From Candidatus Thorarchaeota archaeon (GTDB lineage Archaea; Asgardarchaeota; Thorarchaeia; Thorarchaeales; Thorarchaeaceae), in assembly GCA_011364985.1 (NCBI GenBank), contig RDOC01000004.1:64001-128000 (forward strand): DNA of 64,000 nucleotides, read 5' to 3'. The notes beneath the pieces were generated by a model. It was not told where the DNA came from. It made no database searches and saw only the letters and a list, made by a program, of their open reading frames with translations. This document shows positions 29,446 through 50,474 of this stretch, piece after piece (within the stretch, counting starts at the first letter, position 1; every line of letters begins with the position of its first letter). Position numbers and translations under genes: made by a program.

Positions 29446-29985
29446 CTAAGAAATGGAGAATTCGGCCAGTCGGCGAAAGGCTTCTTCCACGTTCTTGCCT
29501 GTCAGTGCACTCGTTTCTAGGTAGCCATTCAGGCCATGTTCTTCAGCAAATGCCATCCCCATCTCTGTGGTAATAACACGCTCATCTACGAGATCTACTT
29601 TATTTGCCAGAAGAATGATTGGGATGCGTTCGCCCAGTGCATTCTGTGTTTCTTCAATCCACTTTGGAAGCTCCATATACGTGGACTTACGCGTAGTGTC
29701 GAAAACTAGCAGGGCACCTTTGCTTCCGCGATAGTAGCTTCCACGAATGAAATCAAATCGCTGTTGTCCAGCAAGGTCCCAGACCAGAAGCTTCACGACG
29801 ACTTGTCGACCATCAGCTTCATCAACCGCAACGGTCTTCACAGCAAACTGAGAGCCAATTGTAACAATATACTGCTCAGAAAACTTCTGCGTAAGAAATC
29901 TGTTGACCAGAGCCGTCTTCCCACTACCTCCGGCCCCAATCATAACGACCTTTCGCATGAAATCAAATTCCGCAGTTCTTGCCAA
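29446..29985 (-). CDS. Rab-like small GTPase
   Basis: GAGGSGKT, TIGSQF, WDLAGQQRF, YYRG, NKVD and ETSA. Confidence 0.92.
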   Translation of the reverse strand: MARTAEFDFMRKVVMIGAGGSGKTALVNRFLTQKFSEQYIVTIGSQFAVKTVAVDEADGRQVVVKLLVWDLAGQQRFDFIRGSYYRGSKGALLVFDTTRKSTYMELPKWIEETQNALGERIPIILLANKVDLVDERVITTEMGMAFAEEHGLNGYLETSALTGKNVEEAFRRLAEFSIS

Positions 29986-44654: not shown

Positions 44655-45416
44655 TCATTGTACTAGTAATCCATTAACAGTAATAGCTGATTTTGCCCAA
44701 TCGGTCAATACAAGCGGCTTTTCTCTTCCAAAGACCTTGATGGTTCTTAGGACATCTTCCTCCAACAGACCACCGACATAGTATGACACAAGGCTCTTTT
44801 CAATCGAGAGCGTTCGGCTTAGTTCAGCCTGAGTGATTCTACCATTTGCCATGCATGCATCAAGAATCGATTTGATTGTAGGATTAGTGAACATTGATGC
44901 CAGTTTCAGAACTTGATCATCGGGGGAGTAGCCCCTGATAAAGAGATGGCGGGCATTTCCATTTCTAACTGATAGTACAGATCCATCTCGTTCAAGATTT
45001 CTTAGATGATACTGCAGTGCACCCATGGCACATCCAACCTGCCTATGAAGTTCCCTCAGATGGATTCCTGGATTCTGGGAGATTTCTTCTACAATACGGT
45101 CACGTAACTTCAGGACTTTTTCTTCACGACGTTCCAGAGAAATCGTGCCAAGAGCCAGAAAGATGGCACCTGCAGATAGTTTGATGTTATATTCCATAGG
45201 CAGAACAACCAGCGTTCCACCAATCACACTCATACCGGCACTTGTTGTTCCATTCAAGCTTATCTGGGATAGAAAGCTATCTGACCACGACAAATCCTGA
45301 ACAAGAAGCTGATCACTTCCTTGGCCGACGCCAGACATTGCAAGACTGGCCATACCTGAGAACAGAAACAGGAATGAGAGTGCAATTAGAGATTTTCGTA
45401 CTCTTGTAGATGGCAT
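44655..45416 (-). CDS. Membrane-anchored double winged-helix transcription regulator
   Basis: N-terminal hydrophobic segments; NPGIHLREL..LQYHL and ITQAELSRTL..VSYY. Confidence 0.82.
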   Translation of the reverse strand: MPSTRVRKSLIALSFLFLFSGMASLAMSGVGQGSDQLLVQDLSWSDSFLSQISLNGTTSAGMSVIGGTLVVLPMEYNIKLSAGAIFLALGTISLERREEKVLKLRDRIVEEISQNPGIHLRELHRQVGCAMGALQYHLRNLERDGSVLSVRNGNARHLFIRGYSPDDQVLKLASMFTNPTIKSILDACMANGRITQAELSRTLSIEKSLVSYYVGGLLEEDVLRTIKVFGREKPLVLTDWAKSAITVNGLLVQ

Positions 45417-45494: not shown

Positions 45495-46043
45495 CTATCC
45501 TCTGGGTGGATAGGACAAGGTGATCTTGAACCTGCAGGCATCAGCTTTGACAGACATGCATGTTTCTTCGGTAACCACTAGTTTCTCATATTGAATTCTA
45601 TTAAAGTCAGTTAGGTACTCCATAACTGCTTCAATGAAACCTCTCAAGAAATAGCAGGAGGGTTCTTCACTCTCATAACCAGATGCATACGGATTGTCCT
45701 TGATTCTAATAACAGCCTCTTCGTCAAGGAAGAGCTTGTACAAGTTCTCAATCTCCACATCCCCAAATGGAACGATTAGGGTTCCTAGAGCTGTCTTGAT
45801 GAACTCGACGATTCCCTTGAAGTCACCGGGCGGCTTCTGCTTACCAATCTTGAAGTACTCGCGTTGTGCTTCGAGACCCGCAAGACGACCGGCGCTGTAA
45901 TAGAGATCTTTCACACGGTCTGGAAACATAACTGCTATTCGCGAACCAATCTTGTTCCAAGTCTTGGAGAAAAACGCCGACATTAATTCACGTTCCTTAA
46001 GGCGACCTTGCCACCAAGGTATAATATCGTCCGGTTTAGACAT
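45495..46043 (-). CDS. V4R domain protein
   Basis: NPYA..PSCYFLRGFIE..EETC..ACRF. Confidence 0.85.
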   Translation of the reverse strand: MSKPDDIIPWWQGRLKERELMSAFFSKTWNKIGSRIAVMFPDRVKDLYYSAGRLAGLEAQREYFKIGKQKPPGDFKGIVEFIKTALGTLIVPFGDVEIENLYKLFLDEEAVIRIKDNPYASGYESEEPSCYFLRGFIEAVMEYLTDFNRIQYEKLVVTEETCMSVKADACRFKITLSYPPRG

Positions 46044-46103
46044 CTAATCGACTCCGAAGAACGAAATACAGAGAGGAGTTAAGTGCTTTGTGTTGATTCC
46101 CCT

Positions 46104-46574
46104 CTATAAGCGAATATTCCATGTGCAGCTGCCCGCTCCTGTTGCTCTGCACGATTCCTGGAACACTTCTGCCTCCACCCCTTTGAAACGTAGAATAGCC
46201 TCAACTATCCCACTAAAGCCTTCACAATATCCAAATCCACGCATGCCTTCCAATGTGACATCTTGACACCATACGCACTCATCATCTGTTACACGAACAG
46301 ACCCTCGCGCAGTCTTCATGTCAATATCTGTTGGCTTCTTGTTGAAGAGCACCTTGTATATGGTTTCAACTAGCTTCGATACATCCTCGCGTGTCATGAC
46401 GGTATCTTTCGTTTTTTCTGCAATCTCAGTATTTAGATAAATGTGGGACCCCATTTCACGCCCCAGTTCCCGCAGTCGTTCATTTGCGTCCTCAATATTG
46501 TCTGTTTCTGCAAGAATTCCATCGACCCATTGCGCGTAGAGACTCAAGAGCAACGGATTTTCGATTTTCGCCAT
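46104..46574 (-). CDS. V4R/TRAPP Bet3-family-like protein
   Basis: LLLSLYAQWV..ANERLRELGREMG; CVWC..YC..G..ESC..G..C; GGAGGT RBS. Confidence 0.8.
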   Translation of the reverse strand: MAKIENPLLLSLYAQWVDGILAETDNIEDANERLRELGREMGSHIYLNTEIAEKTKDTVMTREDVSKLVETIYKVLFNKKPTDIDMKTARGSVRVTDDECVWCQDVTLEGMRGFGYCEGFSGIVEAILRFKGVEAEVFQESCRATGAGSCTWNIRL

Positions 46575-46587
46575 TTCTAAGGACCTC

Positions 46588-47580
46588 CTAAACAGTCTTA
46601 CCAATCAACTTGATTCCATACTTCTTGTTTCTGGCTATCGCTTGAATGACCTTAGCATGAGGGATATTCATTGCTTCAGCAATCTCTTCTGTCGTTTTCG
46701 TGCCATCACAGTGACGAATAATGTCAGCGTCTGGTCCTCTGATTTTGCTGATATCGCCTTCGAACTCAGGGCATTTTACGAACTTGCCTATTTTGGAATC
46801 TGCAGTCTGGGAAACTTCGACAACTTCTGGAACTTCAACAATGCTTTGCCCAGCCGCCCACTTTAGAAGCTCGATTACACGTTCGTTTGGTTGAAACATA
46901 GTATCAGCAATCTGAGTGGCAGATTTTGTGCCGTCAACAAGCATCAATACATCAAATCCAAAGTTTCGGTACATGCTCTTCATCTCCTTGTAGAGGGGAG
47001 AGTCAAGAGACAAAGCCGTTGAGTAGGTAGATCCTCTTTTGGGTATCGTTGCAGGTAGAATGTTATAGTCGGCGGGGGTCTTGGCCTCGGCTGGTGTATC
47101 CGCAACCTCTGCAACAGGTTCATATGATGCGTTCTCTATCGAATTCGTTACATCCACAACCGGTTCAGTCGAAGCTGTCGATGCAGCTTCCAAAGCAATA
47201 CTCTCCAAGACCTGAAGGTTTGATTCCGCGGATTCTTCAAAATCATCTGGGGGTGGAGGCAGTTCGATTCCCTCTAATAACCTGAGAACATTCTTTGTTT
47301 TTGCAATAGCAAGCCCCAGCTGAAGCTCTGGGACATATAGCACTGTGAGAATCCAGTTTTCGTCAACCGGTGATAGAACCACAAGTCCTTTTTCGGTATC
47401 AATTGTCATCAGTCGCAAGTCGCTTTTGTAGAGGGTAATACTATCCTTGACTCTGGGAAAGAGGTCATCTGGAAAAGAAAAGCTGACAAAGGGACGACCA
47501 GTCTTTGTCATCAAGGAATAGCCTAGAACTTGATCATCAAATCGGAGCTTCGATAAAGCTCGTTCCAAATCGGTTGCCAT
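46588..47580 (-). CDS. Roadblock/longin-like domain + linker + tandem wHTH protein (paralog of 49524-50474)
   Basis: Start MATDLERALSKLRFDD aligns with the paralog; VDGTKSATQIAD and CDGTKTTEEIAE. Confidence 0.75.
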   Translation of the reverse strand: MATDLERALSKLRFDDQVLGYSLMTKTGRPFVSFSFPDDLFPRVKDSITLYKSDLRLMTIDTEKGLVVLSPVDENWILTVLYVPELQLGLAIAKTKNVLRLLEGIELPPPPDDFEESAESNLQVLESIALEAASTASTEPVVDVTNSIENASYEPVAEVADTPAEAKTPADYNILPATIPKRGSTYSTALSLDSPLYKEMKSMYRNFGFDVLMLVDGTKSATQIADTMFQPNERVIELLKWAAGQSIVEVPEVVEVSQTADSKIGKFVKCPEFEGDISKIRGPDADIIRHCDGTKTTEEIAEAMNIPHAKVIQAIARNKKYGIKLIGKTV

Positions 47581-47799
47581 ACTTGGGTACCTCACTGTCA
47601 CTGCGGATTGAGAAAGACCTGCTGGACATGTTATTCTTTCTTGGTGGTCTGAAAAGCATTTTGGTGGCATATGTTCCCACAGCAATGCCGTATTTGCAGT
47701 CTGGGTGCGTTTGCTACGTGAGGAATCCAAAATGGCAGAAAGCATTAAGAGAGGATTTGATAGCTCAACCATAGAGCGAGTTACTAGGAAGTTTGCACA

Positions 47800-48327
47800 A
47801 TGAGAAACATTGTCGGAGGAGCAGCTGCTGCCTTGATTGGGTCACTGATTCTAGGAGGAATTTTCATTGGCGCTGATATTCTGAGACGGACCTACCCTCT
47901 GATTCTTGAAACCGACTTTACGCTTCCCTTGGTACTTACATGGTTGCTTCTCGGATCTGTTTCAGGTCTGTTTTCCAATTCACCTTGGAACACTGTGCGT
48001 ACAGCCGTTTGGATAGGCACCTGTCTTGGTTTACTTTCAGTCATTAGCATTCTCTCTGTCACTCCAGAGTTCTGGACAAGTCCAGATAGAAACCTCGCAC
48101 TTCTACTAATCTTCATCAGTGCAATAGTGACATCCCTTCTGACAATCCCGACAGCCATTGCAATCATTCTGGTTAAGAGAAGACTCTTTAGGGACCAAGA
48201 AAAACCGCCTCCGGAGAAGATAGAATCGGTCTGCTCCGCGTGCGGTGCAGTCTTCAAGTCAGTACCCATTTTATGTTCGGAATGTGGTGCCTTGATGGAA
48301 AACGAACAACGGCCGCAGACGAAATAG
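47800..48327 (+). CDS. Four-TM membrane protein with a C-terminal Zn ribbon
   Basis: Hydrophobic helices; CSAC..CSEC. Confidence 0.8.
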   Translation: MRNIVGGAAAALIGSLILGGIFIGADILRRTYPLILETDFTLPLVLTWLLLGSVSGLFSNSPWNTVRTAVWIGTCLGLLSVISILSVTPEFWTSPDRNLALLLIFISAIVTSLLTIPTAIAIILVKRRLFRDQEKPPPEKIESVCSACGAVFKSVPILCSECGALMENEQRPQTK

Positions 48328-48328
48328 A

Positions 48329-48844
48329 CTAGCGTTCTCTGGTTATGCCACCACCAAGAAGACCACCAATCACCGCAGCAATTCCAGGATAGAGCAGCCC
48401 TTCAAGTGCTGCTTGGAGGATGAGCATTGAGCCTCCACCGAACAAAAGCTCAATGTCACCAGACTGAATAAAGAAGAAGAGAAGCCAAGTCAGAAATGCA
48501 CCGATTATGACAGCAAACACAGCAGCAAGGATTCCTTGCAAGAAGTCTCTGGCTAGAAGACCAGCAATCAGTCCACCGGCCCCCCAAGCCAATGCCATAA
48601 GGACAGTAGCGCTTTGAGCACCATAGGTTAAGATCTGTCCAAGACTTGTGGATCCAAGAGTTGAGGGATAGAGAACAGTTCCGACCACCGCAAGTCTTGC
48701 CTCCAAATCCATATGCAGGTAGAAGTCGTCTACAATGGCGCTGGATATGAGATCTTCCGGCATGGAACCTCCAAAGGTCAGAATTACAAAAGCAATTGCA
48801 AATGCGGCAATCAATCCAGCAATAGTTCCTGCACCTTGACCCAA
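48329..48844 (-). CDS. Gly/Ala-rich multi-TM membrane protein
   Basis: GxxxG-rich helices; TTG start after GGAGGT. Confidence 0.78.
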   Translation of the reverse strand: MGQGAGTIAGLIAAFAIAFVILTFGGSMPEDLISSAIVDDFYLHMDLEARLAVVGTVLYPSTLGSTSLGQILTYGAQSATVLMALAWGAGGLIAGLLARDFLQGILAAVFAVIIGAFLTWLLFFFIQSGDIELLFGGGSMLILQAALEGLLYPGIAAVIGGLLGGGITRER

Positions 48845-49001
48845 GGGATGACCTCCATCTGAACCGTATCTTCTAGTTTGTTTCCGATTGGGCATATTTT
48901 AACATATGCACTACGGCTTCTTCCGATCTGGATCCTTGGCATACTCATTGTAAGCTTAGGCAACCAGTCATATTGGATATGTTTGAACTCTGGGTAGTTC
49001 A

Positions 49002-49508
49002 CTATCTCAATCGGAGAATCCATGTACAGACGGCATCGCCCAGTGCCTTGCAGGATTCTTGGTAGGCTTCGGCATTGAAGCCTCTCAGCTCCATTACGGC
49101 ATCGAAGACCCCACTGAGAATTGCGCAGTACTGAAGACCAGGCATATCAGTGATTTCGACTCCAGCACATATTGGGCAGTTGGCATCTGTGAATTTTATG
49201 ACACGTTGGTCATCACTTATCCAAATACTAGTAAATTCCTGACCTGAGTTGACCTTGTAGGCTAGCTGAAGTGTATTTGCAAATTCCACGAATTCACCAG
49301 CATGCTCACGTATCTTGTCGGCATAGTCCATCAGTAGTGTCTCGCCAACTTTGAAGCCAATGCTTTGCATAGCCCTATTAACTTCATCAACATTGCTGCT
49401 CTGAGTCATTAAGTTGTTCATTAGCTCACGATAGGTTGCTTGGAAAAGCGTCTTCGAAACCTTATCGATTTTGAGATGCCATCCCATCTTCCCCTTGATT
49501 CCCATCAT
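49002..49508 (-). CDS. TRAPP Bet3-like V4R protein
   Basis: KVSKTLFQATYRELM..EVNRAMQSIGFKVGETLLMDY; CPIC..YC..G..ESC..G..C. Confidence 0.85.
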   Translation of the reverse strand: MMGIKGKMGWHLKIDKVSKTLFQATYRELMNNLMTQSSNVDEVNRAMQSIGFKVGETLLMDYADKIREHAGEFVEFANTLQLAYKVNSGQEFTSIWISDDQRVIKFTDANCPICAGVEITDMPGLQYCAILSGVFDAVMELRGFNAEAYQESCKALGDAVCTWILRLR

Positions 49509-49523
49509 TCATTACCTCTTTTG

Positions 49524-50474
49524 TTATTCTTGAGACCTCTTACTTCGTTTAACAAAGCGAAGCGTCTTTCCGCGATAGGCTACTGTGCTCTGTAAGGCTT
49601 TGAAGTAGGAGATATTGAGTTCTTTCGCTATCTCCTGTAAACTACGCCCACCATTACACAACGCGAGCACAGGTCTATGTTCCTTTTTTGTCTTTTTGAT
49701 GTCGCCTTCAAAGAGTGGGAGTTCAACAATTTCAATGGAGCCTGCTTCTTGCTCTTCAGGGCACTCTGTATCCACGATTTCTTCTGCAAAGCACCATCTA
49801 ATAACCTCAAGGATTTGCTCCACGGACTTGTTCAAGACATCGGCAATCTTGTATACACTTCGCTTCTCATCAGCCATCAACAAGACATCAACTGCCAGAT
49901 TAGAGAACTTGGACTTCAGCTTCTTGTTCAATTCTGTTTCAAGACTCATTGCCTCAGAATAACGTTCACCACGAAGAACAAGACAGCCATGCCTGATCTC
50001 TACTGGTTTGGGCTCCTTTTCGGTCGGAGTTGTATCAGCCGCGCGTATGCCTTCAATCATAAAGGGTTCCATCTGTTCTTGACTGGACTCGTCTGCCTGA
50101 CCAATGGAGGATAACCCTGCTGCGGATGTTGTCGTTTCAGATGGTTTCGGAGGCGGCGGCAGAACGACTTCATCCATTAGATCAACAACGCTTTTTGTCT
50201 TTTGAAGCGCCTCTCCAAGTTGCAGGTCTGCAGAGAATAGAACAGCCAAAACCCAATTCTCATCAACTCTGGCGAGAACTACAATTCCTCTACCTGTCAT
50301 GACATTCATCAGCTTGAATGACGCCGCATGTATCTTCAATGTACCTTGAATCTGCGGTAGAACTTCATCTGGTAGAGAGAACGAGAGAAATGGATGACCG
50401 TCATTTGTAATGAGCGCATATCCACTAACAGCTTCATCGAATTTCAGCTTTGTAAGGACGCGCTCTAGTTCCAT
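49524..50474 (-). CDS. Roadblock/longin-like domain + linker + tandem wHTH protein (paralog of 46588-47580)
   Basis: VSGYALITNDGHPFLSFSLPDE, VDENWVLAVL, LPPPP and CNGGRSLQEIAKEL. Confidence 0.75.
   Translation of the reverse strand: MELERVLTKLKFDEAVSGYALITNDGHPFLSFSLPDEVLPQIQGTLKIHAASFKLMNVMTGRGIVVLARVDENWVLAVLFSADLQLGEALQKTKSVVDLMDEVVLPPPPKPSETTTSAAGLSSIGQADESSQEQMEPFMIEGIRAADTTPTEKEPKPVEIRHGCLVLRGERYSEAMSLETELNKKLKSKFSNLAVDVLLMADEKRSVYKIADVLNKSVEQILEVIRWCFAEEIVDTECPEEQEAGSIEIVELPLFEGDIKKTKKEHRPVLALCNGGRSLQEIAKELNISYFKALQSTVAYRGKTLRFVKRSKRSQE

Follow-up and report, generated by a model that had tools for sequence, protein, structure and literature searches.

The window analyzed here is a 64,000-nucleotide stretch of a Candidatus Thorarchaeota contig (RDOC01000004.1). 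Between its positions 45,495 and 50,474, two genes for large roadblock proteins with winged helices (RB1 and RB2) are each followed by a gene for a small protein related to the TRAPP subunit TRAPPC3/Bet3 (T1 and T2). The best overall reading, whose chances we consider evenly balanced, is that the last winged helix-turn-helix unit of the large proteins (wHTH2) and the TRAPPC3-like proteins form a docking module, one that would link a TRAPPC3 dimer containing a cavity with a roadblock platform for small GTPases. Physical binding between wHTH2 and TRAPPC3-like proteins is quite likely, judging from gene neighborhoods and a predicted complex, and a role as a GTPase regulator would, given such binding, be fairly probable. 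The genes and domains concerned are:

49524..50474, minus strand: RB1, 316 residues, with a roadblock domain, a proline-rich, disordered linker, wHTH1, and wHTH2 (open reading frame, ORF; fold by paralogy to the RB2 model; complex model)
50169..50474, minus strand: roadblock domain of RB1, about residues 1-102, whose top helix is short (from the model of the RB2 domain)
49536..49745, minus strand: wHTH2 of RB1, residues 244-313, predicted dock for the TRAPPC3-like dimer (interface in the complex model; same domain in neighbors in nine other families)
49002..49508, minus strand: T1, TRAPPC3/Bet3-like, 168 residues with five invariant cysteines (Pfam TRAPP, 31.9 bits)
46588..47580, minus strand: RB2, 330 residues, with a roadblock domain, linker, wHTH1, and wHTH2 (ORF, N-domain model, structure searches)
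46104..46574, minus strand: T2, orthologue of the crystallized Thor-TRAPPC3 (7YH2, 7YH3), 156 residues (E 8e-76 and 1e-74; Pfam TRAPP, 35.3 bits)

An earlier sequence-only reading had described two co-oriented two-gene units and a third small gene, and we found all five ORFs where it had placed them, all on the minus strand; RB1 and T1 are 15 nt apart, and RB2 and T2 13 nt. The larger genes are paralogous, as it proposed (34% identity over 327 residues, E 2e-65 in a pairwise comparison), and the motifs it quoted are present; T1 and T2 share 26% identity (E 8e-26, pairwise). Homologues of RB2 begin at 47580 and not at the upstream ATG at 47772, and those with names are mostly Thorarchaeota hypothetical proteins. 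T1 probably starts at its second ATG, and its N-terminal extension is common to distant Asgard homologues. Outside the locus, the host genome (1.7 Mb, 74% complete) encodes no other RB-type or T-type protein, so their meeting here is not a matter of chance.

A broad profile detected close TRAPPC3-like genes in many Asgard families. We counted loci scoring at least 100 bits as close and took as a neighbor any wHTH2 gene within 1.5 kb, using a wHTH2 profile built from Thorarchaeota only. By this measure, a neighbor ending in wHTH2 was present at 40 of the 45 close TRAPPC3-like loci outside the host family, compared with 0/14 weak V4R-type loci, so that the adjacency, which the earlier reading had proposed checking across Asgard genomes, extends beyond the host family in which it is conserved. 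The 40 positive loci span nine families, with 19 coming from one family and being kin and not independent cases, and the genomes of the positive families carry one to three wHTH2 matches each. The N-domain of the neighbor varies by lineage (roadblock, longin, or zinc domain) while wHTH2 is constant, and the neighbor lies either upstream or downstream of the TRAPPC3-like gene, in surroundings that differ across the nine families. Fusions also occur: longin-TRAPP and longin-wHTH-TRAPP proteins (P0135, P0239, and P0260) are known, and family f31 has a longin-TRAPP fusion. Family f14 has a roadblock-wHTH1 protein without wHTH2, which sits by a pair of membrane-protein genes and has no TRAPPC3 neighbor; its TRAPPC3-like gene follows a zinc-domain-wHTH2 gene elsewhere in the genome. 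Pfam had suggested that f14 has no TRAPPC3-like genes (0/19 genomes), a view we rejected when the broader profile found them in 19/19. Families f17 to f19 (L172-L178) have about 8-13 TRAPP/V4R-like genes per genome, often in tandem pairs by metabolic genes, and about 10 wHTH2 proteins; a wHTH2 gene neighbors two of seven such pairs.

We modeled full-length RB1 with two copies of T1, letting the domains of RB1 compete. The model scored 0.68, and the best of three controls scored 0.00; 58 of 80 solved pairs and 2 of 110 mismatched pairs reach the score mark, a calibration that is rough for the RB1-T1 job. Runs agreed in at least 67% of contacts, and the predicted local distance difference test (pLDDT) value of the partner was at least 69. 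Confident RB1 contacts came only from wHTH2 (residues 244-251 and 289-313), the other residues, roadblock included, being uncertain, and the modeled interface takes in its last helix and its wing. An interaction had been proposed through the N-domain of the partner; the one predicted runs through wHTH2. On the T1 side, the modeled site is built by both subunits (27-43 with 116-122; 56-64 with 140-143). Between the paralogue pairs, the interface charges shift in opposite directions, from -2.0 to -4.4 in T and from +0.8 to +4.3 in RB (p ~0.04 against random positions, for a single evolutionary event). No solved complex of the wHTH2-TRAPPC3 kind surfaced in the wHTH2 search. The neighborhood result was obtained independently of the model and agrees with it. 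We conclude that the model supports binding but does not demonstrate it.

Within the host family, RB matches were present in 82 of 85 genomes, mostly two per genome about 3 kb apart, and TRAPP matches in 78 of 85. The complete order RB1-T1-membrane pair-RB2-T2-V4R was seen in 25 fetched host-family loci, and the V4R gene also lies 3' of T2 in both the host and sister families. Two genomes (G368 and G319) lack both RB1 and T1, and in a third (G323) both are broken. In trees, RB1 separates from RB2 and T1 from T2 family-wide, and the sister family's lone RB-T-V4R unit branches outside both; the RB tree was built quickly, and the positions of long distant branches are not fixed. These sequence comparisons would fit a single duplication at the base of the host family. 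In the genus with decaying T1, a gene that is cyclase-like by motif only lies between T1 and the membrane gene (L061:6819-7505 and L081:6523-7209).

The Bet3 likeness that had been noted for T1 from its N terminus was borne out. T1 matched solved eukaryotic TRAPPC3/Bet3 chains with E values of 4e-9 to 2e-3, and both proteins pass the Pfam gathering cutoff for TRAPP (PF04051, 27 bits), T1 with 31.9 and T2 with 35.3 bits. The same reading had counted three V4R genes, which holds for the third alone: its product (45495-46043) scores 39.3 bits for Pfam V4R (PF02830, cutoff 31 bits) and has no TRAPP match, whereas T1 (17.3 bits) and T2 (11.9 bits) fall below the V4R cutoff. The only V4R-type PDB match of the third gene was MJ1460 (E 0.017), and T2 had no significant pairwise match to it (E 0.094). 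It thus resembles general prokaryotic V4R proteins (MJ1460 and the PoxR sensor; Podar et al. 2008, PMC2253512), from which the TRAPP-scoring T1 and T2 differ. A combined T1 and T2 profile ranked Thor-TRAPPC3 first among solved structures, followed by eukaryotic C3 (E 1.6e-15) and other TRAPP subunits, C5 included (E ~2e-9 to 6e-9). By sequence, T1 and T2 are Bet3-like rather than generic V4R proteins.

Tran et al. 2024 (PMC10933270) describe Thor-TRAPPC3, to which T2 is orthologous, as a homodimer that binds zinc, contains cavities, and has no known partner; T2 keeps its zinc cysteines. The SMTZ1-45 gene for Thor-TRAPPC3 seems to lie behind RB2 in this same cluster (L050; termini the same as in 7YH3). 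T1 and the adaptors were outside the scope of that paper, which describes a partnerless homodimer. Beyond the tryptophan of the last strand, the chain continues for a median of 6 residues in T1 and 5 in T2, with means of 0.5 and 0 acidic residues, and no extended, acidic C-terminal tail of the Bet3 type was found in either. The aligned stretch at what we take to be the palmitoyl position of Bet3, judging by the alignment of T1 to Bet3 chains, holds a cysteine in 0/45 T1, 0/28 T2, and 0/12 distant homologues. In TRAPP, the extended Bet3 C terminus drives Rab exchange, opening the nucleotide pocket (PMC3747258; PMC10152722).

The N-domain of RB2, modeled with a pLDDT of 93, runs helix, two strands, helix, three strands, helix, with an N-terminal helix and one C-terminal helix, which is the roadblock order. 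Longins run two strands, helix, three strands, two helices without an N-terminal helix, the two folds being circular permutations of one another (PMC3747258). The best structural match was LAMTOR2 (Z 13.5, root-mean-square deviation [rmsd] 2.1, 102 residues aligned), followed by Asgard roadblocks and MglB/C. Roadblocks (Z 12-13.5) came first in both fold searches, and longins aligned only from residue 15-17, with lower Z. The assignment of the N-domain as a longin, and with it the idea of the partner as a longin-class subunit, was rejected on these grounds. Pfam Robl_LC7 matched below its cutoff (best E 0.0055). The fold is shared with MglB and LAMTOR2-3 of Ragulator, roadblocks that dimerize through strand 3 and the top helix to bind a small GTPase. 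RB1 and RB2 differ from these in a shorter top helix (about 17 residues, some 12 fewer than in the Thorarchaeota roadblock 7F8M) and in being fused to two winged helices. Those two units are mutually related, follow a disordered linker, and give weak HTH-family matches below cutoff.

These results bear on the strict proto-TRAPP explanation, in which roadblocks replace Bet5/Trs23, make direct contact with Bet3-like dimers, and so yield an exchange factor for Rab. Bet3 is the closest solved relative of T1 and T2, the circular permutation joins roadblocks and longins, there are two paralogues per class as in the TRAPP core, and longin-TRAPP fusions exist (both in our set and in Tran et al. 2024). 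Yet the model picked wHTH2 although the roadblock was present, the N-domain changes among lineages while wHTH2 is retained, and the roadblock fold, the short non-acidic tails, and the missing palmitoyl-position cysteine all depart from that scheme, which we regard as quite unlikely. The locus shares with the eukaryotic core (Bet3/C3, Trs31/C5, and Trs33/C6 with the longins Bet5/C1, Trs23/C4, and Trs20/C2) its TRAPP-domain proteins and a partner from the roadblock/longin superfamily. It has a roadblock in place of a longin, a predicted contact through a winged helix that TRAPP lacks, a zinc site, and at most a putative Rab substrate. What survives of the proposed proto-TRAPP locus are TRAPP-family proteins with a conserved, predicted-interacting partner; with no longin and no exchange tail found, it is a TRAPP-related GTPase scaffold at best.

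Full-length Foldseek searches placed GATOR1/SEA chains on top (E 4e-7 to 2e-6), and a VIA alignment matched residues 15-251 to 8ADL_S (Z 10.2). Together with the NPRL2-like Asgard proteins already reported (10.1101/2020.10.19.343400), these hits would suit a GTPase-activating RB1:RB2 heterodimer like NPRL2/GATOR1, with the TRAPPC3-like proteins as accessory sensors. The template modeling (TM) score was only ~0.2, however, with an rmsd of 14-19 Å across the GATOR1/SEA comparisons, and RB1 has been lost independently of RB2 in some genomes. NPRL2 and NPRL3 appear to share with RB1 and RB2 the order of a roadblock/longin-type domain followed by winged helices, but their N-domain is a longin and the RB proteins have a long disordered linker. 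The exact GP motif of longins in GTPase-activating proteins (PMC12290439) is absent; RB1 and RB2 have G-x-P before strand 2, and RB1 only has a conserved arginine at the end of strand 4, at most a candidate arginine finger. The resemblance is one of layout, not membership, and a GATOR1-like heterodimer seems to us a quite improbable explanation.

The Rab-like GTPase gene at 29446-29985, which the sequence-only reading had suggested including in complex predictions, lies 16 kb from the locus. In four genomes its orthologue is 18-22 kb from the cluster; in a fifth the distance is 1.5 Mb. We rejected a specific link between the two as evidence because the synteny is broad only and each genome has 11-17 small GTPases. 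This gene is 79-85% identical in five other host-family genomes, and its product ends after the GTPase domain, without terminal cysteines. GTPase genes do occur near relatives of the T and RB genes. A link to GTPases could best be examined at L098:5001-7273 (GCA_002254865.1), a compact, co-oriented series of TRAPPC3-like, roadblock, longin-wHTH2, and Rab-like GTPase genes. Family f30 (L134:1-2013 and L137) has Rab-like GTPase, longin-wHTH2, and T1-like genes in a row, the longin giving a weak Sybindin match (E 0.028). In the sister family, an MglA-like GTPase gene with an altered switch II (GFPG) is divergent from the lone RB-T-V4R unit (L065:8003-8713). In f33 (L088:3-2841), a longin-like-TRAPP fusion is divergent from two Rab-like genes. 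In f15 (L129:1-3180 and L166), a T1-like gene is surrounded by genes for roadblock, KaiC-like ATPase, and Rab-like proteins, and has no wHTH2 neighbor. According to Tran et al. 2024 (PMC10933270), GTPase genes of MK-D1 do not as a rule share operons with genes for roadblocks, longins, or TRAPPC3.

Another explanation is a split, ligand-sensing transcription regulator: a TRAPP/V4R dimer would act as the sensor of a hydrophobic ligand and retain or let go of a DNA-binding protein with winged helices. V4R domains are often associated with transcription regulation and signaling (PMC2253512), ligand binding is favored by Tran et al. 2024, both winged-helix units have weak HTH-family matches, and the predicted interface masks the last helix and wing of wHTH2 in the fashion of an anti-activator. 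Against this, those HTH matches are under the cutoff, N-domains of the roadblock and longin kind are characteristic of GTPase platforms, related loci repeatedly carry GTPase genes, and the winged helix is gone entirely from the longin-TRAPP fusions P0135 and P0239. We consider such a regulator unlikely.

Several observations weigh against the docking module coupled to a GTPase platform. No GTPase gene adjoins the RB/T cluster in host-family loci. The complex model covers the RB1-T1 pair only, was built from our own alignments, and gives docking as a prediction, and T1 interface residues are no more conserved than the protein as a whole (0.81 versus an average of 0.80). The short top helix means that dimerization of the roadblocks is not assured. 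Most of the 14 control loci belong to families in which wHTH2 is scarce, and families f5 and f15 have close TRAPPC3-like genes without a wHTH2 neighbor. One lineage runs counter to the joint losses, keeping RB1 in G391, where T1 is only a fragment, and in G392, where T1 has a stop. A flanking housekeeping block (L13e, a pfkB kinase, and an ABC transporter) is equally syntenic in the host family, which makes synteny within that family weak evidence when taken alone. That block and the pairing missing from f5 and f15 would also fit genes that are neighbors by inheritance or co-expression only, forming no complex. The pairing nevertheless persists in nine other families, in varied neighborhoods, in both gene orders, and with differing N-domains, and the fusions, joint losses, and complex model likewise speak for a complex. 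We therefore find mere neighborhood very unlikely and retain the wHTH2-TRAPPC3 docking module as the best reading.

The remaining genes of the locus are:

48329..48895, minus strand: membrane protein of unnamed family, conserved between both units (locus comparison)
47800..48327, plus strand: membrane protein with a C-terminal zinc ribbon, convergent with the 48329..48895 gene (locus comparison)
45495..46043, minus strand: stand-alone V4R protein of the general prokaryotic type, 182 residues, 3' of T2 in the host and sister families (Pfam V4R, 39.3 bits)

The earlier description of duplicated pairs stands, with the correction that two membrane-protein genes lie between the units. Their products have no pairwise similarity to each other and matched no named family. 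The f14 homologues stand in tandem beside the roadblock-wHTH1 gene, with no TRAPPC3 gene there, an arrangement suggesting that the membrane pair may belong with the roadblock-wHTH1 half. Directly 3' of the V4R gene, 44655-45416 encodes an HVO_0163-like protein that combines a hydrophobic N-terminal part with two winged helices; it is present in nearly all host-family loci and absent from the sister-family locus. A scan for bacterial-type promoters and terminators, the only operator-related look made, gave no excess over shuffled sequence and was uninformative.

Under the docking reading, each unit would produce a hetero-complex of a zinc-stabilized TRAPPC3-like dimer with a cavity, as shown for the T2 orthologue (Tran et al. 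2024), and an adaptor predicted to bind the dimer via its last winged helix. Since the modeled site is formed by both T1 subunits, it would by symmetry be present twice per dimer. The roadblock on its flexible linker would serve as a small-GTPase platform, like the roadblocks of MglB and Ragulator. Two docked adaptors could then unite two roadblocks, and a cavity ligand could tune the assembly, which is the weakest step of the proposal. The wHTH2-TRAPPC3 pair would be an old, conserved Asgard unit in which roadblock, longin, and zinc domains can replace one another as the N-domain, and the duplication at the base of the host family would have given the RB1-T1 and RB2-T2 pairs, each probably specific. 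A more far-reaching version is that the pair, with its roadblock or longin, regulates small GTPases throughout the Asgard archaea and led directly to the TRAPP core, the longin having first been tethered to the Bet3 dimer by a winged helix or a fusion, with direct longin-Bet3 contact and the catalytic tail arising later in eukaryotes; this we hold to be doubtful.

Thorarchaeal TRAPP genes were reportedly already shown by Zaremba-Niedzwiedzka and colleagues in 2017. The parts are known, and the link of wHTH2 to TRAPPC3 is the new element: we found no paper on it, including under Asgard, TRAPPC3, and winged helix together, in a check that covered literature other than the 2017 Nature paper. A crystallized archaeal TRAPPC3 that has so far been partnerless thereby gains a testable candidate partner, with a domain and residues to target. 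The authors of Tran et al. 2024 noted that Asgard GTPases could not be matched to their regulators by gene layout, and several of the related operons described here point to a GTPase. If both the binding and the GTPase control are true, the two building blocks of TRAPP would have been joined before eukaryotes, by a route unlike that of present TRAPP.

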